10,462 nt of DNA from Gammaproteobacteria bacterium (lineage in GTDB: Bacteria > Pseudomonadota > Gammaproteobacteria > Steroidobacterales > GCA-2729495): contig JARRLL010000012.1 in assembly GCA_037387125.1 (NCBI GenBank), positions 63,369 through 73,830 of the forward strand. The letters are read 5' to 3'. The first letter of the stretch is position 1, and every line of letters begins with the position of its first letter. The position numbers and the translations under genes are program-made. The notes under the pieces were generated by a model. It saw only the letters and a list, made by a program, of their open reading frames with translations. It did not search any database and was not told where the DNA came from. Positions 1-10,462 of the stretch are shown here, in pieces.

Positions 1-16
1 TACCAAGGGCGTTCTC

Positions 17-1144
17 CTACTGCTTGATGCGCACCAGTTCGTTCAGCACGCCGTCCAGACCACCGAAGACCGAGATGTTGCCAACCTTGTCGGCAACCTT
101 CTCCAGTGCCTCCAGCTCCTTCAGGCGCAGAGCGACCGGGTTGCTCTCCATGACCTTCGCGGTGTTCAGCAACGAACGGGTCGCGTTGGTCTCCTCGCGG
201 CGACGGATCACGTTCGCCTGTGCGGCCTTGTCCGCTTCCACCACCTTTGCCAGGATTTCCTTCATATCACCCGGCAGGATGATGTCCTTTACGCCAATGC
301 CGCGCACCTCGACGCCGATCTCGGCCAGCTTGTCGCGCACGTGGTCGAACACCTCACGATCGACGGCGCCCTTATCTTCCAGCAACACGTCTAAAGTGCG
401 GGTACCCACGGCCGCGCGCAAACCAAACAGGATCTCCGAGCGCAGGAAGTCGAGCGGGAGCTTGACTGCCTTAAAGGCCTGCAATGCGTCTACGATGCGA
501 AAGTTAGCGGTCAGGTTGATGCGAATACCCACCTTATCGCGGGTCATAATCTCCTGACCGGTCACCTCCAGCGCGTTGATACGCAGATCCACAAAGTCGA
601 TATCGACATCGCGCTCGAACTTCCAGAACGCGTGCAGACCCGGCTGCAATGCGCCATTCAGCTCACCATCGACAAACAGCAGACCCACGTGGCCGTCCGG
701 CACCTTGCGCGCGAACACTGCGGCCATGATCATCGCGCCCGGGCGCACCAGGGCCTTCGCTACGCGCGGGGTCAGCTCAAAGTCCTCGGCGATATCCACC
801 TTGTCCACGGTGATGTCGATGACATCCTTCCAGAACAGGGCACGACGATCCGGACCCAGAACCTCACCCACCTGGTCGTTGAAGAAAACCAGGGCCACCT
901 CTGCCGGACCAGTCTTCACAACTTCGAACAACTGGTCGACTTCAGCGCGATGCTCCTTCACCAGGAAATCCTGCAGACGGTGCTGGAACAACGGCAGAGC
1001 CAGGTCGAACAACTCAACGTCGATACGACGCAGCGGGTCGACAAAGCGATGCAAGCCCGGCTTCAGGAAGCCGACAAAGTCACCGCGCTTGAACAGCAAG
1101 CCACGCTCGTGCTTACGCACGATAAAAGTACGAATGAATAACAT
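17..1144 (-). CDS. SPFH/band-7 domain protein (stomatin/slipin-like) with an N-terminal partial duplication of the SPFH fold
   Basis: ORF track 17..1171 minus (stop TAG at 17-19). The translation carries the band-7 core (GIRINLTANFRIVDALQAFKAV, LPGDMKEILAKVVEADKAAQANVIRRREETNA, ALRLKELEALEKVA). The N-terminal 140 aa repeat the first SPFH strand motifs (LLFKRGDFVGFLKPGLHRF vs LLFVDGELNGALQPGLHAF). A perfect SD (GGAGGTG) sits 7 nt upstream of the internal ATG beginning MLFIRT, so the real start is probably ~1144 rather than the TTG at 1171 used by the ORF track. Confidence 0.85.
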   Translation of the reverse strand: MLFIRTFIVRKHERGLLFKRGDFVGFLKPGLHRFVDPLRRIDVELFDLALPLFQHRLQDFLVKEHRAEVDQLFEVVKTGPAEVALVFFNDQVGEVLGPDRRALFWKDVIDITVDKVDIAEDFELTPRVAKALVRPGAMIMAAVFARKVPDGHVGLLFVDGELNGALQPGLHAFWKFERDVDIDFVDLRINALEVTGQEIMTRDKVGIRINLTANFRIVDALQAFKAVKLPLDFLRSEILFGLRAAVGTRTLDVLLEDKGAVDREVFDHVRDKLAEIGVEVRGIGVKDIILPGDMKEILAKVVEADKAAQANVIRRREETNATRSLLNTAKVMESNPVALRLKELEALEKVADKVGNISVFGGLDGVLNELVRIKQ

Positions 1145-1575
1145 TTTGATCACCTCCATTTCTTGCATCAATAACGGTCAAGTTCACGTGCCATGCACGA
1201 ACCAGCGACTGCCAGCTCGTAAAGCGACGCAACGTTTTGACCATGAACCGGGTCACCCCGGTACAACAGACTTCGTTGTTCGGCGCGTTCTTACAGACAT
1301 CCAGAGGAAAAAATTGCGGTGACGGCCACACTGTCGGGCGGGAGCACCGGCCCTGCAACGGCGGGTCCGTGTCGGCCTGGCAATCAGACTTCGCGCGCAC
1401 AGCCTCCGTGCAGGCACGCAACAAACTCTCTTGCACATGGAGAACATGAACTGGACGCAGCAGGGGAACGCTGAACCGGCCCGAACGAGTGCCGAGGCAA
1501 ATCCGTCAGCCGGATCGCTTATGCGACCGCTAAATAGTTTCACCTCCGGCCGCCCCGCGACGAATGAAACCGTCA

Positions 1576-1636
1576 TTCACGGGTGGATTCGAACCACGGG
1601 CTTACGCCCTTCCCATTGGATCAACTTAGCAGGTTG
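1576..1636 (-). pseudogene. tRNA-like remnant (T-arm GGTTCGAATCC consensus plus short hairpins, no recognisable anticodon arm)
   Basis: The reverse complement reads AAGTTGATCCAATGGGAAGGGCGTAAGCCCGTGGTTCGAATCCACCCGTGAATGACGG. It has a canonical T-loop but no D or anticodon arm that I can fold, and it is followed by a 7-bp hairpin (CGAATGAcggtTCATTCG). Confidence 0.3.
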
Positions 1637-1709
1637 ATGGAAACGCAGGAGTCGAACCTGCGACCGACAGATTCATGGTCTGTTGCTCTACCCTCTGAGC
1701 TAGATTCCA
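1637..1709 (-). tRNA. noncanonical tRNA; anticodon loop CCAUGAA (C33; formal anticodon AUG, possibly Met/Ile-like CAU shifted); no encoded CCA (trailer U-CAA)
   Basis: rc = TGGAATC TA GCTC AGAGGGTA GAGC A ACAGA CCATGAA TCTGT CGGTC GCAGG TTCGACT CCTGC GTTTCCA T. The acceptor pairs 6/7, and the D, anticodon and T stems are perfect. Position 33 is C and position 34 is A. Confidence 0.5.
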
Positions 1710-1925
1710 GTGGAGTTGGGTTTTACGAGCCGCTCGACACACACCGTGCGATGGATAGCGTTGGTGCGCCGGCCGGGTATACAGAACCCGCACCGCTGAA
1801 CGTCGTTCTGGCCCCAACCTTGGTTGACAATGCCGGGCATCAGGCACCGGCGTTGCCGTCCAGCCACGCTGACACGTTGCTGGTAAAACGGGACTCTGGA
1901 TGTCTGTCACGGACTACTCGATAAC

Positions 1926-2001
1926 TGGCGCGGCCCGAGGGATTCGAACCCCCATCTGCGACGTACGCACTGTCGTGCTCTTCCACTTAAGCTAGAACCG
2001 C
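1926..2001 (-). tRNA. tRNA, anticodon loop GUGCGUA -> GCG (Arg-like), CCA encoded; 31-39 A.C mismatch, U37
   Basis: rc = GCGGTTC TA GCTT AAGTGGAA GAGC A CGACA GTGCGTA CGTCG CAGAT GGGGG TTCGAAT CCCTC GGGCCGC G CCA. The acceptor has two G-U pairs. Confidence 0.5.
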
Positions 2002-2008
2002 ATAAAAC

Positions 2009-2084
2009 TGGCGCGACCCGAGGGATTTGAACCCCCATCTTCTGCCCTACCACGGCCTTGCTCTGCCAGTTGAGCTAGAGTCGC
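2009..2084 (-). tRNA. tRNA, anticodon loop GUGGUAG -> GGU (Thr-like), CCA encoded; anticodon stem only 3 WC pairs plus tandem A.G/G.A
   Basis: rc = GCGACTC TA GCTC AACTGGCA GAGC A AGGCC GTGGTAG GGCAG AAGAT GGGGG TTCAAAT CCCTC GGGTCGC G CCA. The T-arm and acceptor are nearly identical to the neighbouring tRNA at 1926-2001, suggesting tandem duplication with a diverged anticodon region. Confidence 0.5.
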
Positions 2085-2089
2085 ATTGA

Positions 2090-2160
2090 CAACCCGGGAC
2101 GGATTCGAACCGTCGTCTTCACTTCTGGAAGGTGACGTTCTGCCACTGAACTACCGGGAT
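2090..2160 (-). tRNA. tRNA-Trp (anticodon CCA); no encoded 3' CCA (trailer G-UCAA)
   Basis: rc = ATCCCGG TA GTTC AGTGGCA GAAC G TCACC TTCCAGA AGTGA AGAC GACGG TTCGAAT CCGTC CCGGGTT G. The D and T stems are perfect. The anticodon loop has U33 and CCA. There is a 31-39 C.A mismatch and a 2-71 U.U mismatch. Confidence 0.65.
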
Positions 2161-2177
2161 TCTGTTTCAAGAAATCG

Positions 2178-2261
2178 CATCCCGGGACGGAGTCGAACCG
2201 TGGTCTGCGCGTTCGGAAGTTACTGTTCGCAAGCACTATTCTGCCATTGAACTTTCGGAAC
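2178..2261 (-). pseudogene. 84-nt tRNA-like element related to the adjacent tRNA-Trp (same D-arm and T-arm/acceptor) with a disrupted or expanded anticodon region; pseudogene or unusual class-II-length tRNA
   Basis: rc = GTTCCGA AA GTTC AATGGCA GAAT A GTGCTTGCGAACAGTAAC TTCCGAA CGCGCAGAC CACGG TTCGACT CCGTC CCGGGAT G. The 5' acceptor strand does not pair with the 3' strand. It retains a TTCCGAA motif resembling the Trp anticodon loop TTCCAGA. I could not fold a canonical anticodon arm. Confidence 0.35.
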
Positions 2262-2319
2262 ATGGAAACAGGTAACGCCTGCGGCGTTCGTTACTTGCGT
2301 GTTTAAGTACACGCAAATT

Positions 2320-2394
2320 TGGTGGACCGTGAAGGACTTGAACCTTCATCTCGCCGGGTAAGAGCCGGGTGCTCTGCCATTAAGCTAACGATCC
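2320..2394 (-). tRNA. tRNA-Lys (anticodon CUU), CCA encoded
   Basis: rc = GGATCGT TA GCTT AATGGCA GAGC A CCCGG CTCTTAC CCGGG CGAGAT GAAGG TTCAAGT CCTTC ACGGTCC A CCA. All stems are canonical and U33 and A37 are present. Confidence 0.8.
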
Positions 2395-2400
2395 GTAATA

Positions 2401-2480
2401 TGGTTGAGGTAAACGACGAGAGTCGAACTCGTATCATCCGGGGTCACCTCCCGGGGTCTTGCCGTTAGACCACGTTTACC
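2401..2480 (-). tRNA. tRNA-His (anticodon GUG) with G-1:C73; anticodon loop AGGUGAC has G33; 3' end reads C73-UCAACCA
   Basis: rc = G GTAAACG TG GTCT AACGGCA AGAC C CCGGG AGGTGAC CCCGG ATGAT ACGAG TTCGACT CTCGT CGTTTAC C TCAACCA. The 8-bp acceptor with the extra 5' G is the His identity element. Four extra nucleotides (UCAA) lie between C73 and the CCA. Confidence 0.7.
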
Positions 2481-2482
2481 AT

Positions 2483-2558
2483 TGGTGCCTTGCATGAGAC
2501 TCGAACTCACATCTGTGGAGTGGCGCTCCACTGCTCTACCGCTTTGAACTAACAAGGC
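2483..2558 (-). tRNA. tRNA-Gly-like (anticodon GCC) with C33 instead of U33, CCA encoded
   Basis: rc = GCCTTGT TA GTTC AAAGCGGTA GAGC A GTGGA GCGCCAC TCCAC AGAT GTGAG TTCGAGT CTCAT GCAAGGC A CCA. Confidence 0.6.
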
Positions 2559-2575
2559 ATGTACATCAACGATTA

Positions 2576-2649
2576 TCAGGGCGGCTGGATTCGAACCAGC
2601 GGCTTCACGGATCCGGGCCGCGCGCTCTGCCAGACTGAGCTACACCCTG
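2576..2649 (-). tRNA. tRNA-Pro-like (anticodon CGG) with C33, no encoded CCA
   Basis: rc = CAGGGTG TA GCTC AGTCTGGCA GAGC G CGCGG CCCGGAT CCGTG AAGCC GCTGG TTCGAAT CCAGC CGCCCTG A. The D and T stems are perfect, and the anticodon stem has one G-U pair. Confidence 0.6.
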
Positions 2650-2657
2650 TTTGAATA

Positions 2658-2723
2658 TGGAGGTAATCGGAATCGAACCGATCTGCTCTGGCATGCAAAA
2701 CCGCTGCTTTCCCAGAAACCCCC
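2658..2723 (-). pseudogene. truncated tRNA-like element: acceptor stem plus perfect T-arm (ATCGG TTCGATT CCGAT) but no D-arm and no canonical anticodon arm; no CCA
   Basis: rc = GGGGGTT TC TGGGAAAGCAGCGGTTTTGCATGCCAGAGCAG ATCGG TTCGATT CCGAT TACCTCC A. Only a TCTGG/CCAGA 5-bp stem enclosing 20 nt could be drawn in the middle. Confidence 0.4.
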
Positions 2724-2725
2724 GT

Positions 2726-3005
2726 AAAGAATACGCGCCGCTATCGCGGCTTCTTAATTTGCGAGTACAAATACTCGCTTTCTGCCTCCGGCGGTGCTCT
2801 GCACGCCTTCACTCGCTAGCGCGCGTGAAGAGTTCCGAGCATGAGTGCCGCTATCGCGGCGTCTCAATTTGCGAGTAGAAATACTCGCAACTCTGCGCTT
2901 CACTTGGTGCTCTGCGCGCCTGCAATCGCTAATGCGATCGCAGAGCTCCGAGCATGTGAAACGCCTGCGGCGTTCATTATTTGCGAGTACAAATACTCGC
3001 AAATT
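2726..3005 (-). repeat. 2.5 tandem ~115-bp units, each ending in a small hairpin (GCCGC-TAT-CGCGGC or AACGCC-TGC-GGCGTT) plus a 22-26-bp perfect palindrome ATTTGCGAGTA-NAAA-TACTCGCAAAT
   Basis: Unit boundaries are marked by GAG(T/C)TCCGAGCATG at 2831-2844 and 2944-2957. The palindromes are at 2757-2778, 2866-2890 and 2979-3004, with a degenerate copy at 2295-2316 directly 3' of tRNA-Lys and another at about 6577-6603. The units contain GCAGAGCAC-type D-arm-like remnants, so they may be decayed tRNA genes that kept their 3' hairpin module. Confidence 0.6.
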
Positions 3006-3125
3006 TGGCTCCGGTCGCAGGGCTCGAACCTGCATCTGACCGATTAACAATCGGGAACTCTGAGATATCGAAACTTCGCCTCCTGGTCTTCAACCAGGCG
3101 CTCTGCCGTCTGAGCTACCGATACA
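3006..3125 (-). pseudogene. chimeric tRNA locus: 5' half of a tRNA-Phe (GAA) joined by a 26-nt linker to the 3' two-thirds of a tRNA-Asn (GUU) ending in CCA
   Basis: rc = GTATCGG TA GCTC AGACGGCA GAGC G CCTGG TTGAAGA CCAGG | AGGCGAAGTTTCGATATCTCAGAGTT | CCCGA TTGTTAA TCGGT CAGAT GCAGG TTCGAGC CCTGC GACCGGA G CCA. The 5' Phe acceptor (GTATCGG) is not complementary to the 3' acceptor (GACCGGA). Confidence 0.45.
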
Positions 3126-3276
3126 TTGGGCGGCGTTAACCACCAGCCCAGCGGGCAGCGCGTCGTCGCAAACGCACCTTGGCCTTGGCCTGCACGCCGG
3201 AACGCGCTGCCCGCATCGAGTAATCCGCATTGTTAAAGAACGCAAAAACAGTTCGCTACAACGCGTTCGACCGGGC

Positions 3277-3312
3277 ATAAAAAAACCCCGGTTGAACGAA
3301 ATCCAACCGGGG
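3277..3312 (-). terminator. rho-independent terminator on the minus strand (9-bp stem CCCCGGTTG/CAACCGGGG, 9-nt loop, then T7 on minus)
   Basis: Plus strand reads aaaaaaa-ccccggttg-aacgaaatc-caaccgggg. Confidence 0.6.
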
Positions 3313-3530
3313 CTATGTCCCTGGTCGGAAGGCTTGTTGCAGCAGCCTTCCGACATGTATTCGAAAGGCTAGGTAATCAATCCACTATGCTCGTAATTCA
3401 TTTCTTCAGGCCGAGCGTCGCCGTTGTCGCCGACCGGATTATTGGCCTGGCAAACGTTCGCCGCTTCACTACCTACGTAAGGCACCGGCCTATGTCGGCC
3501 CGCACTCACGCATTGGTTAAGCAAAATATT
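3277..3530 (-). ncRNA. candidate small RNA ending at a double hairpin (11-bp hairpin 3324-3354 followed by the intrinsic terminator 3277-3312); AT-rich promoter-like region upstream at 3520-3650
   Basis: No ORF longer than 10 codons on the minus strand here. The two adjacent strong hairpins plus U-run are typical of sRNA 3' ends. The AT-rich stretch (gcaaaatattttttgcacatatattcataa...) would supply the promoter. Only the 3' end is well defined. Confidence 0.25.
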
Positions 3531-3797
3531 TTTTGCACATATATTCATAAGGGCGCGGACTTTACTCCTCTACTTTTAAGTAGTCAAAGAAATATTTGTT
3601 ATAAGAACGTTCAGGCAAACAATAAAAACGGGCGAGAAAAAAACAGGAATCAAACTGTGCGCTTTCACCTGCGCTGATCGTCGATCACCTATCGGATCGC
3701 GACGGGTCCGCGAGAAGGCCAGAAAGTCTTCACCCTGCAAACGCTGCCGGTCAGCACCAGCTGGCCGGTGGGTGATTAGACGTTTGCTATCCGCACC

Positions 3798-3943
3798 CAA
3801 TGCGGCGGCCGGCTGCGCGTCATCGCCAGCATCGAATCGCCGGCGGTCATCGAGCGGATTCTCAAGCACCTTGGCCGGGAGGCCGTGCCGGTCGATCCTG
3901 CGCATCCGAGCCGGGCACCGCCCCGGTCAGATCGGCTGATCTG
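3798..3943 (+). pseudogene. C-terminal remnant (~48 codons) of an IS91-family transposase gene
   Basis: The frame opens just after an in-frame stop at the left edge of the repeat and ends at TGA 3941-3943. There is no upstream coding continuation. Confidence 0.45.
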
Positions 3944-4188
3944 ATTCTCTCGCCGATGCCCACGCCGCCCGGCCCCCGCGCCGGGAGGTGCGTGTGTTGA
4001 CCGGCGGCTTTGCCGGTTGGCATTTCCGGGTGAAAGGGGAAGATTCACGGACCCAACGACGTCGCCCGGGTGAGGCTCCGCCTGCATCGCGGCGTTCAAC
4101 CTGCCATCAACACCCCGATTGCAACATGCCTCTACCAATTCGAGTGAATCGGCTGCTCAAACATAGGTGGCTTATACTTCCTATTCGC
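3798..4188 (+). mobile_element. copy 1 of a ~390-bp IS91/ISCR-like 3'-end (oriIS-side) remnant: transposase C-terminal tail plus conserved non-coding region ending AACATAGGTGGCTTATACTTCCTATTCGC
   Basis: About 90% identical to 6819-7187, with a 26-bp insertion at about 4046-4071. The frame reads CGGRLRVIASIESPAVIERILKHLGREAVPVDPAHPSRAPPRSDRLI*, a C-terminal motif I recall from IS91-family HUH-Y2 transposases. The terminus (A)AACTTCCTAT(T)C matches the oriIS consensus of IS91/IS801/IS1294/ISCR as I remember it. Confidence 0.55.
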
Positions 4189-4212
4189 GATAGTCACAAT
4201 GCAGGTCTTGAT

Positions 4213-4256
4213 GTAGCCCAGCATCGGGCAGCGGATGCTGGGCTACGTTGTTTTTA
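4213..4256 (+). terminator. intrinsic terminator, plus-strand orientation (13-bp stem GTAGCCCAGCATC/GATGCTGGGCTAC, loop GGGCAGCG, then GTTGTTTTTAT)
   Basis: Perfect 13-bp inverted repeat followed by a T-run. It abuts the stop codon of the minus-strand lipoprotein gene (4257-4259), so the hairpin may also stabilise that transcript's 3' end. Confidence 0.55.
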
Positions 4257-5123
4257 TCACTGATTGCGGAAGGCTTCGATCGAGAAGATGACACTGCCGC
4301 TATCGATTTGGAAAAATATGGAATCCCGTTCTTGCGGTTTTTCGTCAATATAGATTAGCCCGCCGTATGCGCCGCCCAAGCTCGGGCCACAGTTTTCCGA
4401 GCTGAGTTCGACGCTCATATTGTAAAGATTCCTGTCGGAGCTACCCTCGATGTCGCTTATAGAGCCGGTCCACGTGCAGGCGCTGCCAGTTGAATCGAGT
4501 AAGTCGCCATTAAACGTGCCATCCGGGTTAAAGGTCAGAGTCACGCCTTGACCTGGAACCTGGCTATTCCAGATTCCAGAGAAGTCTTCTATTGCAGTGT
4601 TTCTATCGTAAAGCGGGTTGAAAAGTGTTTCGAACACGATTATATCCGGCTCCTGGTCGGCATCGTCTCCATCGTCGCATACGAACGAGCCTTGCAGTGC
4701 CGACTTTTCATCAAACTTTCCTTCCTCCGTTCGTTTATCAAAAGTGCCATCAACAGCGCAGTTGCTGGTAACTATGTCATCACCGATAGAAAAATCTTGC
4801 GAAGTGAAACGCGTGACGTCACCTGAAAGCTCAAGCCCTAAAACATCTGTGGAAGCTCCGCCCGACGCCTGAACTGAGTACTGCAGAGTAAAGACTCGCA
4901 TTTCCCCGGTATCTCCGATAATCGGTTCGGTCGTCAGAATGATGACGTTCTGATCTGTAGCGGAGTTGCCATCGGTCAGCGTGCCGTCCCAGATTCCACC
5001 CAATTGTATATCTGTCGGTGGTTGGTCTTTGCCAGGGCCATCGAAACCGCTATCACTGCCACCGCCGCAGGAGGCTAATGCGGCCGCAACTGCGGCAGAC
5101 AGCGCTGTATTTCTCTTAATCAT
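4257..5123 (-). CDS. hypothetical lipoprotein (signal peptide with lipobox LASC)
   Basis: The N-terminus MIKRNTALSAAVAAALASCGGG is a classic SPII lipobox. The mature part is rich in D/G/S/T. GC content is clearly lower than in the flanking DNA. No family is recognised. Confidence 0.7.
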   Translation of the reverse strand: MIKRNTALSAAVAAALASCGGGSDSGFDGPGKDQPPTDIQLGGIWDGTLTDGNSATDQNVIILTTEPIIGDTGEMRVFTLQYSVQASGGASTDVLGLELSGDVTRFTSQDFSIGDDIVTSNCAVDGTFDKRTEEGKFDEKSALQGSFVCDDGDDADQEPDIIVFETLFNPLYDRNTAIEDFSGIWNSQVPGQGVTLTFNPDGTFNGDLLDSTGSACTWTGSISDIEGSSDRNLYNMSVELSSENCGPSLGGAYGGLIYIDEKPQERDSIFFQIDSGSVIFSIEAFRNQ

Positions 5124-5268
5124 GAGGCTAATTCTATCGTATCGCTGTTATTTCTTTATTCTAACCGGTTCAAAATATGGTTATCTGGAATCTGACATAA
5201 GCAGACCTTCCGGCCGCTATACTGTAGACAGGTATTGTGCCAACACATTTGTTGGCGGGAGAGGGGCG
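5124..5268. promoter_or_regulatory. AT-rich divergent intergenic region between the lipoprotein gene (minus) and the 2TM gene (plus); presumed divergent promoters
   Basis: 145 bp, AT-rich (ttatttctttattctaacc...). GGAGAGGGG sits 6 nt before the ATG at 5269. Confidence 0.3.
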
Positions 5269-5547
5269 ATGACTGAGGTGGACACCAAGCAATTAACTGA
5301 TGCTTACAAAAAGGTTCTCAAAAAGGAGAAGTTCAAGGCCTTTTACATCCATCTGGCAGCATATTTAATTGTCAACACGGCACTATTTATTACCAATATC
5401 GAAACTAACCCCACTGTATTTTGGGGTTGTTTCCTCGGCTGGGGGTCGGGCGTTCTAGCAATTGTGGTCTTCAAGATTTTGCCTATGGACAAGCAGCTCG
5501 AAGAGCAGCGTATCGAAGTCGAGGCGATGGCAGCTGGTTATGAATAG
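5269..5547 (+). CDS. small membrane protein with 2TM domain (two TM helices; FYIHL...N...W...GWG motif)
   Basis: MTEVDTKQLTDAYKKVLKKEKFKAFYIHLAAYLIVNTALFITNIETNPTVFWGCFLGWGSGVLAIVVFKILPMDKQLEEQRIEVEAMAAGYE. It has a strong RBS. The ORF-track entry 4966..5547 carries an N-terminal extension antisense to the lipoprotein gene, which I reject. Confidence 0.7.
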   Translation: MTEVDTKQLTDAYKKVLKKEKFKAFYIHLAAYLIVNTALFITNIETNPTVFWGCFLGWGSGVLAIVVFKILPMDKQLEEQRIEVEAMAAGYE

Positions 5548-5729
5548 GTGCGGGGGTTGTGCGCTAAGGACGCTGTAATCTGCAACCTAATGACTAGGGG
5601 TGCTCTAAGGTGCCTCTGTGGTTCGGCTAATCTGAAGGCCTGTCGGAATGTCTTGGGCCAGGGGCTTGCTCGGGAGTTGGCCCTGAGCCGGCAATCGAAA
5701 ACAACTGCGCAGGATAAATTCAGAATGAC

Positions 5730-6557
5730 ATGCTGAAAATTTTCTTCGTCGTCGCTGCCTGTTACATTTTGCTAGCCGCTGTCGTGTATTTTGCGCAGGC
5801 TCGTATACTTTACCTTCCAGACCTGCCCGGGCGAGCGCTGACCGCGACGCCGGCTGATGTCGGGATGGACTATGAAGACGTCTTCATCGAAACAACTGAT
5901 GGAGTGATGCTGCACGGCTGGTTTATCAAGGGTCATTCGTCTCAGGTGCTGCTGTTCTTTCACGGCAATGCAGGAAACATCTCACATCGTCTTGACTCAA
6001 TACGGCAGTTTCAAGAACTGGGTTTGTCAGTATTGATTCTTGATTATCGGGGTTACGGTCGGAGCGATGGCCGAACTACCGAAAGGGGGGTCTATCGCGA
6101 TGCAGATGCAGCGTGGCAATATCTCATCGTGGATCGCGGTTTAGCGGCCAGCGATATTATTGTTTTCGGACGTTCCTTGGGAGGCTCGGTCGCAGCGCGG
6201 CTAGCCGGCTTGCAACAACCACTGGGGCTAATCGTAGAATCGTCGTTCACGTCCGTCCCTGACATTGCTCAGGACCTCTATCCATGGCTCCCCGTGCGCT
6301 GGTTGAGTCGCCTTCGTCACGCGACAGGTGAATACGTGCGGGACGTCAAATGCCCCATACTTGTCATTCATAGCCGCGACGACGAGATAATCGCGTTTCG
6401 CCATGGCGAAGCAATCTTTGCAGCGGCGAACGAGCCTCGTACCCTGCTGGCGATTTGGGGCACTCATAACGACGCATTCTTGAGTGATGCGCGTGCCTAT
6501 CTTGACGGACTTCGAGCATTTTTGACTGGACTGAGCGCGCCCGCTTTGACTCGTTAG
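5730..6557 (+). CDS. membrane-anchored alpha/beta hydrolase (BEM46/ABHD-like; HGNAGN motif, nucleophile elbow GRSLGG, Asp in HSRDDEII, His in GTHND)
   Basis: The 275-aa ORF has an N-terminal TM helix (IFFVVAACYILLAAVVYF) and the ordered catalytic triad motifs of alpha/beta hydrolases. Confidence 0.85.
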   Translation: MLKIFFVVAACYILLAAVVYFAQARILYLPDLPGRALTATPADVGMDYEDVFIETTDGVMLHGWFIKGHSSQVLLFFHGNAGNISHRLDSIRQFQELGLSVLILDYRGYGRSDGRTTERGVYRDADAAWQYLIVDRGLAASDIIVFGRSLGGSVAARLAGLQQPLGLIVESSFTSVPDIAQDLYPWLPVRWLSRLRHATGEYVRDVKCPILVIHSRDDEIIAFRHGEAIFAAANEPRTLLAIWGTHNDAFLSDARAYLDGLRAFLTGLSAPALTR

Positions 6558-6748
6558 TGCGGTTCTGGGTGGCGGAATTTGCGAGTATTCGGATACACTA
6601 TTAAGGCGCCGCACAGCAACGCAAGACCAGCGGAAGGATTGACTCAATCGCTGCCGCTAAACGCGTGTGTCGCTTCGTGAACCTCCTGACTTACTCGGAT
6701 CGACCGACAGGTTCGAACCAAGACCTCCTAGAGTTCGACAAATAAAAA

Positions 6749-6776
6749 GGGCCAGCCTAAATCGGCTGACCCTGTT
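6749..6776 (+). other. hairpin (GGGCCAGCC-taaatc-GGCTGACCC) preceded by AAATAAAAA and followed by TGTT; possible weak terminator for the hydrolase gene
   Basis: Inverted repeat with one mismatch, lying 190 bp after the hydrolase stop. Confidence 0.3.
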
Positions 6777-6818
6777 AGTCGCATGACTGGTTTGCGCGAC
6801 CCTTAGACTCGCGAGCCG

Positions 6819-6966
6819 CCAATGCGGCGGCCGGCTGCGCGTCATCGCCAGCATCGAATCGCCGGCGGTCATTGAGCGGATTCTCAAGCACCTTGGCGGA
6901 GAGGCCGTGCCGGTCGATCCTGCGCATCCGAGCCGGGCACCGCCCCGGTCAGATCGGCTGATCTGA
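6819..6966 (+). pseudogene. C-terminal remnant of an IS91-family transposase gene (copy 2)
   Basis: Same frame as copy 1, with stop TGA at 6964-6966. The frame opens after a TGA within 40 nt upstream. Confidence 0.45.
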
Positions 6967-7187
6967 CTCCCTCGCCGATGCCCGCACCGCCCGGCCCCCG
7001 CGCCGGGACGGGCGCGTGTTGCCCGCCGGCTTTGCCTGTTGGCATTTCCGGGTGAAAGGGGAAGATTCACGGGCCGCCACCTGCATCGCGGCGTTCAACC
7101 TGCCATCAACACCCCGATTGCAACACGCCTCTACCGGTTCGATCGAGTCCGCTGCTCAAACAAAGGCAGCTTAAACTTCCTATTCGC
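6819..7187 (+). mobile_element. copy 2 of the IS91/ISCR-like 3'-end remnant (transposase tail ...CGGRLRVIASIESPAVIERILKHLGGEAVPVDPAHPSRAPPRSDRLI*, oriIS-like end AAACAAAGGCAGCTTAAACTTCCTATTCGC)
   Basis: See copy 1. It sits in the convergent gap between the hydrolase gene (plus) and the outer-membrane protein gene (minus). Confidence 0.55.
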
Positions 7188-7299
7188 CCCGGGTCAGACG
7201 GTTCAAGCCCTCTGCCGGTCACCCTGTAACAACGGGCCCTAATGGCGAGAACCTGGCTCGGACCGTGCATGCCTTCGGCTAGCCCGCTTCCGCCCCCGG

Positions 7300-8427
7300 T
7301 CAACCCGCAAACTCCCAGTTGATACCCAGCAGGACCAGCGTCTGGGTTGTCCGCAAGACATCGTCGGGCTCGTCGGCAAAACCCGCATCACCGCTGGAAC
7401 GGTCATGGCGCGCCTCGAACGTGCCGACGAGGCGTTGCGACCCTAGCAACAACTGGTACTTGACGGTTCCCGTCAGTCCGAGCAGCCTCTGCTGCCCCCC
7501 GGTAACCAGTCCGTCATCATCGAGGTGGAACTCGGGTCGCACCGCGAAGCTCAGTCGCTCGTTTGCCGCCCAGACCAGCCAGACCGCACCGGTCGTCCAC
7601 TGGAAGCGGGGCTGCCCAGGCTGGTCCGCCTGCTTTTCGGTGCCATAGTCGAGTGAAGCGGCCAACCGCCAGGGGCCGCGCTGCCATTCGACAATGGAAT
7701 TACTGAAAAACCGCCAGTACTCCAGATCGGTATTGTCCTGATCCGAGCCGTAATAGAGGTTTTGGATGAACTTCGCGTTGTCACTGAGCGAGAACCCGGC
7801 CGAGAAACCGAGGCTCGGTATGTCATTGGGATTCGTCAGGTAGTTATAGCCATTGACGAGGTAAAAACCGAGATCCACCGAATCACTGACATCCCAGAGC
7901 AATTCCCCGCCGAAAAGAAAATACGGCACGGTATCGCTCAGGTAGGCGCGCGTGTAGTTCGGGTTGTCGATCGAAAGATAGGATTCGTAGCCGATGTAGC
8001 TGTTGATCAGCCCGGCAGTGAGCCTGACTTTACCGTCGTTACCGAAAAGGTAAGACACGTTCGCCCGGTAAAGATGGCGCCAGTCATCCGCGTTAGCGAT
8101 TGGCTCGTTGGCTGCCGGCGGCGGCGACGTAACCAGGCGCTTCGAATCGTCGCCGGCTTGCAGGCCGAATTCGAAGCCCCAGCGTGAGCCTACATTAGCT
8201 TCGCGGGACAGGTTGAACATCGCCTCGTTCAGTTCCAACTGGTTAAGCGTCGCCGCGGACGATTTACCCTGCCAGTTGTCATCGGAGGGGTCGCGATTGC
8301 TGCCGACGTAGCCGACGTCGAGGTAGGCTCTAACCTGCAGCGGAACGTCATCGGCCGCCAGAACATCCCTGGAAAGCAACGCGACTAATCCAACTCGCAC
8401 GAACGAGTTGCGAAACTGTCTTGGCAT
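7300..8427 (-). CDS. outer-membrane beta-barrel protein (putative porin-like OMP), signal peptide ...LLSRDVLA|ADD
   Basis: The ORF track gives 7300..8436 with a GTG start; the ATG at MPRQFRNSFVRVGLVALLS is more likely. It has alternating amphipathic beta-strand character, many Y/G/N/D, and a C-terminal ...GINWEFAG with aromatic residues near the end. Confidence 0.7.
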   Translation of the reverse strand: MPRQFRNSFVRVGLVALLSRDVLAADDVPLQVRAYLDVGYVGSNRDPSDDNWQGKSSAATLNQLELNEAMFNLSREANVGSRWGFEFGLQAGDDSKRLVTSPPPAANEPIANADDWRHLYRANVSYLFGNDGKVRLTAGLINSYIGYESYLSIDNPNYTRAYLSDTVPYFLFGGELLWDVSDSVDLGFYLVNGYNYLTNPNDIPSLGFSAGFSLSDNAKFIQNLYYGSDQDNTDLEYWRFFSNSIVEWQRGPWRLAASLDYGTEKQADQPGQPRFQWTTGAVWLVWAANERLSFAVRPEFHLDDDGLVTGGQQRLLGLTGTVKYQLLLGSQRLVGTFEARHDRSSGDAGFADEPDDVLRTTQTLVLLGINWEFAG

Positions 8428-8584
8428 GCGTATCACTCTGTTGCGTCGCGCGTTGATTCTTCAATACAAACCCATACAGAGTATGCGGCGCATTACCGCA
8501 ACTATCCAGACTGCCCACAAGGCTCGCTGGCCACGGCCCACAAATTCGTCATGATGGGTTTTTTATTTGGCTGCACCAAATACG

Positions 8585-9523
8585 CTAGTGACACTCAGCG
8601 TCGCACTCCGAATCAAAAGCAGAGTCAGTTCCAGCGAACTGGGCTCCGCTGTTTGTTTCGCCGGTCAGGGTAAGCTCTGTGTCGGCGCAGCCGACGCCGG
8701 TGTCCCCGGTCAGGAAATGGAACTTGGCATCCAGGAAACCGTCGTTGTCAAAGTCGGTATTTAATTCAGTGGTCGATGACGGATCGAGGCCGGCACCAGC
8801 AGGCCCGAAACTTAAGGTGGAACCGACAATATTGCCAGCGACCAGGTTGACAGGGTCGCCCGCGCTGGTGGTTGAGGTGAATACGATCACCTCGATGACA
8901 TCATTGAGCCCGCCGGGAGCGGAGGCACTGCCGTCGTGATCCGGATGGACCGCCCGATTAGGCGCTGCCGTGTCGATATCGATCTCAGCGGGCAGTACGC
9001 CCGCCGGCGCCACAACGATATCGTCGAAGAAAAAGCCGGTCAGGCTATTGGTGTGCGCGACCAGAAACACCTCGACGTTGGTGAGGTTGGTCCAGCTACT
9101 GTCAAAATCCACGGTCAGCTCGCCAGGGATAGCGATGCCCTCGAAGTTGCTCGCATAAGTCACTAGCGAGGCCGTCTGATAAATATAGCCCCCGCCGTCA
9201 ATTTTGCCCCGGAACGTGATACCACCGACCGCGTAGACGGGCTGGTTGCCAATCAACCGTATCGACATCTGCTTCAACGTGAACGGATCCGTGTTGGTTT
9301 GGAACATATTGAACGAGTAATAACCGCTCAAGGCCCAGATTTGGTAATCCGGCGTGATGCCTAGCACGGTGGCATCACTGGTGGTAAACCGATAGCCACG
9401 ACTGTCGAATGACGCCGTGGTACCCGTCGAATCCTCGAAATCAATTACGGTATCGGCTGCGAAAGCAGGCGCAGACGCCAGGCAAACGCTGAGCAACCAT
9501 GACCGGTGCTTAAATATTGACAT
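8585..9523 (-). CDS. hypothetical secreted protein (SPI signal peptide MSIFKHRSWLLSVCLASAPAFA|AD), D/T/G-rich, C-terminal Cys cluster CADTE...SECDAECH
   Basis: 312-aa ORF, co-directional with and 150 bp upstream of the OMP gene (probable operon). No family is recognised by eye. Confidence 0.65.
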   Translation of the reverse strand: MSIFKHRSWLLSVCLASAPAFAADTVIDFEDSTGTTASFDSRGYRFTTSDATVLGITPDYQIWALSGYYSFNMFQTNTDPFTLKQMSIRLIGNQPVYAVGGITFRGKIDGGGYIYQTASLVTYASNFEGIAIPGELTVDFDSSWTNLTNVEVFLVAHTNSLTGFFFDDIVVAPAGVLPAEIDIDTAAPNRAVHPDHDGSASAPGGLNDVIEVIVFTSTTSAGDPVNLVAGNIVGSTLSFGPAGAGLDPSSTTELNTDFDNDGFLDAKFHFLTGDTGVGCADTELTLTGETNSGAQFAGTDSAFDSECDAECH

Positions 9524-9532
9524 GACAATCCC

Positions 9533-9737
9533 CCCGCACCGCTCTGGTGCCGCTTAAGGCCGCCGGGACGGGCGCGTGTTGACCGGCGGCTTTCCCGGTT
9601 GGCATTTCCGGGTGAAACGGGAAGGTTCACGGGCATCGCAGCGTTCAACCTGCCATCAAAACCCCGATTTTAACACGCCTCTACCGGTTCGATCGAGTCC
9701 GCTGCTCAAACAAAGGCAGCTTAAACTTCCTATTCGC
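9533..9737 (+). mobile_element. copy 3 (5'-truncated, ~205 bp) of the IS91/ISCR-like element: non-coding part plus oriIS-like end only
   Basis: Aligns to copy 2 from CCCGCACCGC onward and ends ...GCAGCTTAAACTTCCTATTCGC. It begins 10 nt upstream of the secreted-protein start codon (9523) and ends 24 nt before the ZnuA-like stop (9761). Confidence 0.5.
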
Positions 9738-9760
9738 CGCCTAGGCCGGTTGCAGCAGGA

Positions 9761-10462
9761 CTATGGCAGCGACCGATGAAGTCGTTCTACGTTATCGTGC
9801 ATCACGCTGAGGAAGTCGCCCTCTTCCGGAGCGTTCGCGACCGTCCGAAAAGGCACGCTGACGATGCCTGCCTTGGCGAGGCCGATTCGTGTTTCTTCCA
9901 GCGGCTCAGACTCCCAGACCATGATCGTCGCCGGGTGCGTGACGAGTATCTGTTGCAATTCAATCCAGTCAAATGTCGAGGGTGCCTCGTCCGTTTCCCA
10001 GTGCACACTCTCGCCGTTAATACCGTAGCGACTCTCGAGATACTGGTACACGGGATGCGAGAACAGGACAGGCCTACCATCGAGCTGTGCGAATGCATCC
10101 GCAAGGCGCGCATCGAGTTCAGTAAGCTCCCGCTCCAGGTTTGCAAGGTTGTCACGGAACCGCGTTTCGCCCGCTGGTACCAGATCGATAAGTAAGTTGG
10201 CGAGGACCCTGGCCTGCGCAATGGCAATCTGTGGGTCCAGCCAGGTCGTGAAGGCGGTCCGCTGGTGAGAGTGCTCACCCTCCGGGCCGTGCTGATGCTG
10301 GACAGAATCGTCGAGCGGAATGAGTCTGTCCACGACAATAGCTGACGTATCAACAAGGCGACGCCGATCGAGCGAAATCATGTTGAGCCAGGACTCAGCG
10401 CCGGCGCCGTTGAGTAAAATGACGTCGGCCGACTGCAAGAGCTGAACCTGTTCCTCACTCGG
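9761..10462 (-). CDS. znuA: metal (Zn/Mn) ABC transporter substrate-binding protein, ZnuA/TroA family; 5'-partial (N-terminus beyond window)
   Basis: His-rich loop (HQHGPEGEHSHQ), a W-L-D-P motif (TAFTTWLDPQIAIA), and VLFSHPVYQYLESRYGI matching the ZnuA FVFHDAYGYF region. The frame stays open to the window edge. Confidence 0.8.
   Translation of the reverse strand, partial: PSEEQVQLLQSADVILLNGAGAESWLNMISLDRRRLVDTSAIVVDRLIPLDDSVQHQHGPEGEHSHQRTAFTTWLDPQIAIAQARVLANLLIDLVPAGETRFRDNLANLERELTELDARLADAFAQLDGRPVLFSHPVYQYLESRYGINGESVHWETDEAPSTFDWIELQQILVTHPATIMVWESEPLEETRIGLAKAGIVSVPFRTVANAPEEGDFLSVMHDNVERLHRSLP

Follow-up and report, generated by a model that had tools for sequence, protein, structure and literature searches.

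The tRNA array and its genomic surroundings

The window, as we call the whole 10,462-nt stretch of DNA analysed here, carries on its minus strand a cluster of tRNA genes which, judged from its sequence, is an accessory array belonging to an uncultured gammaproteobacterium. Genes flanking the array code for a lipoprotein, a BBP2 porin, an alpha/beta-hydrolase, a ZnuA-like protein and an SPFH/Band_7 protein, and it is because of this gene content that the window is regarded as bacterial chromosome and not as phage; a megablast search of the window against phages gave no match. The features of the array are listed below in the direction of the minus strand, where L001 is a sister metagenome contig carrying an intact allele and the slash in the junction marks the join.

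3284..3314, minus strand, strong intrinsic terminator with a 14-bp stem and a U run (terminator scan), 160 nt upstream of the Phe 5' end
3063..3124, minus strand, 5' 62 nt of a tRNA-Phe(GAA) gene, identical to L001 7388-7449
3062..3063, minus strand, putative deletion junction …UUCGAUAUCU/CAGAGUUCCCG…, with 120 bp missing relative to all other copies
3006..3062, minus strand, 3' 57 nt of a tRNA-Asn(GUU/GTT) gene, identical to L001 7570-7626
2960..3005, minus strand, double hairpin right after the Asn CCA end, UUGCGAGUA-UUUG-UACUCGCAA followed by AACGCC-GCA-GGCGUU (repeat families D3/D6, inverted repeats I1-I3)
1636..2649, minus strand, rest of the tRNA array: Pro(CGG), Gly(GCC), His(GUG), Lys(CUU), Trp(CCA), Thr(GGU), Arg(GCG) and 'His'(AUG) (ARAGORN; Rfam 41.5-61.8 bits)

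By ARAGORN and Rfam, 11 tRNA genes make up the intact array, all on the same strand in a stretch of 1.6 kb (L001 7388-8996); their spacers range from 2 to ~360 nt, and the window retains eight of the genes. The intact allele thus shows the many same-orientation tRNA genes at operon-like spacing by which long tRNA arrays, or L-arrays, are recognized (PMC8421152). As the terminator at 3284..3314 ends the preceding transcription unit, the promoter of the array should lie between 3283 and 3125, an interval in which no sigma-70 consensus was found.

On the other side of the array, the region 0.2-4.3 kb beyond window position 1 (L001 10824-14920) holds an IS91-family (Y2) transposase gene, a tmRNA gene with the tag ANDDNYALAA, an acyl-CoA dehydrogenase gene and the gene for SmpB. 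The transposase gene is located between the tmRNA gene and the array, 2.5 kb from the latter, and a 66-nt stretch in the 109-aa ORF adjoining the array is 86% identical to a part of it (L001 6779-6844 vs 11635-11700). The SmpB of L001 is 77% identical to that of MAG LOGT_bin.0117 and 60-71% identical to those of Woeseiaceae/Steroidobacteraceae MAGs, which places the organism among the uncultured Gammaproteobacteria. None of the 20 related MAG loci has a tRNA array near SmpB/tmRNA, and synteny with them is limited to SNF-SmpB-tmRNA; because even the nearest relative is only 77% identical in SmpB, the loss of synteny carries little weight. In the relatives the tmRNA gene directly follows SmpB, whereas in L001 the acyl-CoA dehydrogenase gene stands between them.

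Hairpins, repeats and relics within the array

The double hairpin behind the Asn CCA end is kept in both alleles and is one of four copies in the array (minus strand ~3003-2960, 2891-2850, 2779-2737 and 2316-2274), each situated 3' of a tRNA or tRNA-like end. The first hairpin of these copies has the form UUGCGAGUA-UUUG/UUUC-UACUCGCAA, and the second is GC-rich, either AACGCC-GCA-GGCGUU or GCCGC-GAUA-GCGGC; in the copy after tRNA-Lys, compensatory changes preserve the stem (UUGCGUGU…ACACGCAA). There is no U run behind these hairpins, no Rfam family matched them and the motif was not found in viral contigs. They may be processing signals or REP-like elements.

Two tandem units of ~110 nt, 77% identical to each other, occupy the minus strand at 2960-2850 and 2850-2737, between tRNA-Asn and tRNA-Pro. 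Within them the sequence of an internal hairpin varies such that the pairing is kept (GCGAUCGC…GCGAUUGC vs CUUCAC…GUGAAG), and the hairpin is flanked by GCUCUGC…GCAGAGC. No Rfam match rose above noise for these units, which may represent a structured RNA of a new kind or very decayed tRNA genes.

Decayed remains of tRNA genes are also present, all on the minus strand. The relic at 2722-2657 has an acceptor stem, a T arm and CCA with no D arm, is called a 'D-loop Ala' by the mitochondrial mode of ARAGORN and falls in a sub-threshold Rfam match to YrlA (25 bits; L001 7925-8039). The one at 2261-2177 is a decayed paralogue of the adjoining tRNA-Trp with an expanded anticodon region (repeats D7 and D11), and a T-arm fragment is found at 1656-1584, behind the last tRNA. 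The standard tools made no call at these relics, and since they occur in both alleles they reflect an older decay of the array. Several of the genes that are called have atypical features as well: the 'tRNA-His' at 1636-1709 (minus strand) has the anticodon AUG and C33 in place of U33; the tRNA-Trp at 2090-2160 (minus strand) has a U-U mismatch in the acceptor stem and no encoded CCA; and in the tRNA-Phe of the intact array (L001 7388-7462) U53-U61 replaces the near-universal G53-C61. In the tRNA-Gly at 2483-2558 (minus strand), the window has a G6-C67 pair vs an A-C mismatch in L001 (SNP 2553; 47.5 vs 41.9 bits).

Outside the array, an intergenic repeat of ~390 nt is found at 3797-4188 and 6819-7187 (88% identical), with a partial third copy at 9561-9738. 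Eight clustered SNPs that set L001 apart from all other contigs lie inside the first copy, which suggests gene conversion or assembly mixing between copies.

Two tRNA genes joined at 3062/3063

Read on the minus strand, positions 3006-3125 lead from the acceptor 5' strand, D arm and anticodon arm of a Phe(GAA)-type tRNA through 26 nt into an Asn(GUU)-type part with an anticodon arm, variable loop, T arm, acceptor 3' strand and CCA. The initial annotation had described the locus as such a fusion of a Phe(GAA) 5' part to an Asn(GUU) 3' part, and the sequence does read so. Its limits need the correction of a single base: the element is where it was placed, but base 3125 is only a flanking U, and the chimeric element proper runs from 3124 to 3006 (119 nt).

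The alignment to intact tRNA-Phe and tRNA-Asn genes that had been proposed as a check could be made with the genes of the sister contigs L001 and L002, and both pieces proved fully identical to them. The segment 3124..3063 corresponds to nt 1-62 of the intact tRNA-Phe, and 3062..3006 to nt 19-75 of the intact tRNA-Asn, an agreement that is, letter by letter, far beyond chance. The Phe piece keeps the acceptor 5' strand, the D arm, the anticodon arm, a 4-nt variable loop, the T-stem 5' strand, the T-loop and three of the five nucleotides of the T-stem 3' strand, and has no acceptor 3' strand, discriminator or CCA. The Asn piece keeps the last 2 nt of the D-loop, the D-stem 3' strand, the anticodon arm, the variable loop, the T arm, the acceptor 3' strand, G73 and CCA, and has neither the acceptor 5' strand nor the D-stem 5' strand.

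With this correspondence, the 26 nt first taken for a linker dissolve into parts of the two genes. On the Phe side they consist of the variable loop AGGC, the T-stem 5' strand GAAGU, the T-loop UUCGAUA and UCU, the 3 nt left of the T-stem 3' strand; on the Asn side, of CA from the end of the D-loop, GAGU as the D-stem 3' strand and U at nt 26. The two outer acceptor strands, GUAUCGG and GACCGGA, form no in-register 7-bp stem, in agreement with the early observation that they are not complementary. An 8-bp outer stem, GUAUCGGU/ACCGGAGC, can be drawn by eye; it has one mismatch, leaves only a 'CA' tail and engages U8 in pairing, and we discarded it as chance.

Intact alleles in sister contigs

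An exact look-up of the 288-aa lipoprotein of the window led to the sister JGI metagenome contigs L001 (28,963 nt), L002 and L003, and a second look-up with the 109-aa ORF adjoining the array led to further contigs. By BLAST, the window is ~99.9% identical to L001 and L002 outside a 120-nt gap, its two parts 1-3062 and 3063-10462 mapping to blocks of L001 that are exactly 120 nt apart. A three-way alignment gave one clean 120-nt gap with identical flanks; the extra bases of the intact allele are L001 7450-7569 and fall between window positions 3063 and 3062. ARAGORN calls the same three tRNA genes at this place in L001 and L002:

L001 7388-7462, tRNA-Phe(GAA), intact, 75 nt (ARAGORN; Rfam tRNA 60.1 bits)
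L001 7465-7539, tRNA-Ile(GAT), intact, 75 nt (ARAGORN; Rfam tRNA 59.2 bits)
L001 7552-7626, tRNA-Asn(GUU), intact, 75 nt (ARAGORN; Rfam tRNA 58.3 bits)

The 120 bp missing from the window can therefore be itemized. Phe lacks 13 nt, namely the final 2 nt of its T-stem together with the acceptor 3' strand, A73 and CCA; then follow a spacer of 2 nt, the whole tRNA-Ile(GAT) gene (75 nt) and a spacer of 12 nt; and Asn lacks 18 nt, made up of its acceptor 5' strand, U8-A9, its D-stem 5' strand and 5 D-loop nucleotides. The eight array genes at 1636..2649 are untouched. A search of the window for the missing 120 nt, including the absent Phe 3' and Asn 5' parts, found no second copy, and only generic D- and T-arm words matched other tRNA genes. 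The reciprocal halves, which the initial annotation had suggested looking for elsewhere, are thus not in the window; they went together with tRNA-Ile(GAT). The same comparison disposes of a split or permuted gene arrangement, as the intact allele has the two halves in two normal genes and no partner halves are present in the window.

When all loci were typed by diagnostic words, the intact arrangement was found in four independent metagenome samples (3300056866, 3300056864, 3300056894 and 3300056971), whose contigs are ~99.9% identical to the window, and the window alone has the deletion junction. In the SNP table each contig shows a few private differences, and the haplotypes nearest to the window, L005 (2 SNPs in 4.1 kb) and L006 (1 SNP in 1.9 kb), carry the intact allele; by this comparison of haplotypes the deletion is recent, at the level of a strain or population. 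Exact look-up of the Band_7 protein variant of the window gave no match, a shared 24-mer was not found in metagenome, viral and genome collections, and an Asn-side 27-mer was not found in metagenomes. The contig L006, from sample 3300056971, ends at 1971, 71 nt into the 120-nt interval and inside tRNA-Ile, which could be a graph bubble from both alleles coexisting in the sample or could simply come from low coverage.

The nature of the join

In the intact allele the left breakpoint is ATATCT/TCCCGA and the right one CAATGG/CAGAGT (slash at the cut); they have no base in common, so that the join, …TTTCGATATCT/CAGAGTTCCCG… in its wider context, is blunt and without microhomology. From this blunt join with no shared bases we infer an illegitimate, non-homologous deletion, and not site-specific or homologous recombination. 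Among spontaneous bacterial deletions, a total lack of microhomology is slightly unusual. An 8-nt repeat, TTCCCGAT, does occur close to the breakpoints, at -1 on the left and +5 on the right, but not in register with the join; shuffles contain a shared word of 8 nt or more in ~2.7% of cases. We considered slippage on TTCCCGAT and rejected it: slippage predicts a 126-nt deletion with loss of CAGAG, and the observed product differs. The opposite polarity, in which the intact allele would have come from an insertion into an ancestral chimera, is implausible, since a 120-nt insert would have had to complete two tRNAs exactly and add a third.

A different account of the join is that no cell carries it and that it came from an assembly error, a consensus or polishing error, or the loss of 120 bases in file handling. 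No k-mer is common to the two sides of the join, and therefore a de Bruijn-graph assembler could not have made it without reads containing it; a collapsed repeat should lie within TAGCTCA/GGCAGAG, the D-arm word that is shared, and not where a T-stem meets a D-loop. An artefact would fit the restriction of the join to one sequence while four other samples have the intact allele, and the contig of the window was not found in the collections searched; the window, the deletion aside, is essentially free of private differences from its closest haplotypes. It would also fit the round number of 120 nt, equal to two 60-column FASTA lines, but, counted in window coordinates, the junction at 3062/3063 does not fall on a multiple of 60. 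On balance, we regard an artefactual join as unlikely.

tRNA models and folding of the chimeric segment

The initial annotation had left room for the whole 120 nt folding in a covariance-model search as one class-II tRNA with a long variable arm. No such fold was obtained, and the observation of a two-gene chimera stands. Neither Rfam nor ARAGORN with its intron option, nor relaxed thresholds, gave a single class-II or intron-containing tRNA over the 120 nt, the would-be variable region of a single-tRNA reading being 48 nt. The 120-nt RNA has a predicted energy of -38.9 kcal/mol with z = -1.0 against shuffles, and its minimum free energy fold does not form a cloverleaf. The idea of a single tRNA that has an intron or a long variable arm was accordingly rejected: no tool folds the 120 nt in this way, and the stability is no better than that of shuffles.

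Part of the element does score as a tRNA. Rfam RF00005 matches 3064-3124 (61 nt) with 34.5 bits, above the gathering threshold of 29, compared with 60.1 bits for the intact Phe gene. In the alignment, 13 T-arm positions of the model are replaced by 2 nt, and UCGAUAU is taken as the acceptor 3' strand, paired to GUAUCGG; the Asn piece has no Rfam tRNA match in the window. Standard ARAGORN makes no call at 3006-3124, with or without the intron option. In its metazoan-mitochondrial mode it reports a TV-loop (T-armless) Phe and a D-loop (D-armless) Asn that overlap by 10 nt, the common segment being UUUCGAUAU.

These calls invite the reading of the element as a functional non-canonical RNA, be it as two armless tRNAs that overlap in UUUCGAUAU, as a tRNA that is split or permuted, or as a single tRNA with an intron or a giant variable arm. 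We consider this very unlikely. The supposed acceptor 3' strand, UCGAUAU, is shown by the intact allele to be T-loop and T-stem of the Phe gene, and on this ground two functional armless tRNAs were rejected. The Phe T-loop/T-stem sequence UUCGAUAU is a chance complement of the Phe acceptor 5' strand, and it is this mimicry of an acceptor strand that produces both the 34.5-bit match and the mitochondrial-mode calls. The acceptor stem of the D-loop Asn model can be drawn only with an A-C mismatch and two G-U pairs. The silence of standard ARAGORN and a stability no better than that of shuffles also speak against a functional RNA, and the arrangement is not conserved, being missing from every other copy. 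Armless tRNAs are not known to work with the bacterial translation machinery.

Discussion

The element at 3124..3006 is, with high probability, a hybrid tRNA pseudogene, the remnant of one 120-bp deletion within an accessory array of tRNA genes. The ancestral state, kept in the sister populations, would have been tRNA-Phe(GAA), a 2-nt spacer, tRNA-Ile(GAT), a 12-nt spacer and tRNA-Asn(GUU). The deletion would have extended from inside the T-stem 3' strand of Phe to inside the D-loop of Asn, such that Phe nt 1-62 became joined to Asn nt 19-75 and tRNA-Ile was wholly lost. The array is probably made as one precursor transcript from a promoter expected downstream of the terminator at 3314-3284 and ahead of the Phe 5' end, and if the array is co-transcribed, the chimeric segment would be transcribed too. 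The chimera is predicted to be unable to form an acceptor stem together with a T arm; lacking a pairable acceptor stem with a joined T arm, it would be expected to give no aminoacylatable tRNA through RNase P and 3'-end maturation, and by the established requirements of tRNA processing the chimeric RNA would be degraded. A non-functional hybrid pseudogene is, by those same requirements, the most likely product, and the net effect would be the loss of three presumably supernumerary tRNA genes. It is likely that this loss could be tolerated because the array is an accessory one, with other decayed tRNA relics already in it.

There is only a slight chance that matters went otherwise, either with the chimeric transcript processed to a stable tRNA-like RNA (T-armless Phe-like and D-armless Asn-like forms sharing UUUCGAUAU, or a decoy for tRNA-targeting nucleases or processing enzymes), or with the deletion selected for removing the Phe, Ile and Asn tRNAs of the array.

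The initial annotation had read the locus as a recombination junction at a tRNA array, mediated by an integrase or by homology. A true junction of two genes and the footprint of a rearrangement it is, but the mechanism finds no counterpart in the sequence, which contains neither an integrase nor an att-like duplication and has no homology at the join. That the join is an attL/attR-type scar of integrase or homologous recombination, bordering a mobile element whose far border has the reciprocal halves, is hardly credible. While tRNA genes are classic integration sites, and an IS91-family transposase gene and a tmRNA gene lie 1-4 kb beyond the window start, what sets the sister contigs apart is 120 nt of tRNA sequence and not an insertion. 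Neither the ORFs of the window nor 16 kb of L001 gave an integrase or recombinase domain, the window has no duplicate of the Phe 3' or Asn 5' parts, and the breakpoints fall at non-homologous positions (T-stem and D-loop) with no shared bases. A genomic island at the tmRNA gene was rejected as well, the tmRNA 3' end not being repeated. As in the attL/attR tRNA-fragment repeats of genomic islands and prophages, a partial tRNA gene adjoins other DNA; unlike them, the locus has no integrase, inserted element or duplicated 3' tRNA segment, and the fragment is fused to another tRNA gene and not to island DNA.

For the hybrid pseudogene, the closest setting is that of the accessory long tRNA arrays, which are horizontally acquired and often cryptic, and between related members of which insertions, duplications and deletions are frequent (PMC8421152). 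Like the L-arrays of PMC8421152, the locus has a dense same-strand tRNA cluster, perhaps of patchy distribution, a transposase gene nearby, and atypical tRNAs together with relics; unlike them, the array is shorter, with 11 canonical genes when intact and eight in the window. An array of the same kind, with 20 tRNA genes, is found on the megaplasmid pBASL58 of Pseudomonas sp. Leaf58. The phage and plasmid arrays searched showed neither array-level homology nor a common gene order with the locus, distant BLAST giving only matches of single tRNAs or two tRNAs.

Hybrid genes are also known from the tandem tRNA genes of E. coli, where near-identical genes recombine at homologous positions, through deletion or unequal exchange, and a functional tRNA results. 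The locus resembles them in that an upstream tRNA gene contributes the 5' part and a downstream one the 3' part, with the interval lost. It differs in that the breakpoints are at non-equivalent positions (T-stem and D-loop), the tRNAs are unrelated isoacceptors and there is no homology; with breakpoints so placed and without homology, the chimera would not be able to fold as a tRNA. Split and permuted tRNA genes occur in Nanoarchaeum equitans and Cyanidioschyzon merolae, and armless tRNAs in mitochondria. The likeness to these is superficial, consisting of halves that do not pair and of the mitochondrial-mode TV-loop and D-loop calls; unlike split or permuted tRNA genes, the element has no complementary leader and trailer, no partner halves and no conservation, and its halves come from ordinary contiguous genes.

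The locus shows that an above-threshold tRNA covariance match (34.5 bits), together with 'armless tRNA' calls, can stem from a deletion scar. The event itself would be an ordinary one in a known kind of locus, of little importance beyond annotation. For the biology of such arrays it would offer a clean and dated case of decay, in which three genes of an accessory tRNA array were removed by one blunt 120-bp deletion on a background otherwise identical to the intact alleles of neighbouring samples.
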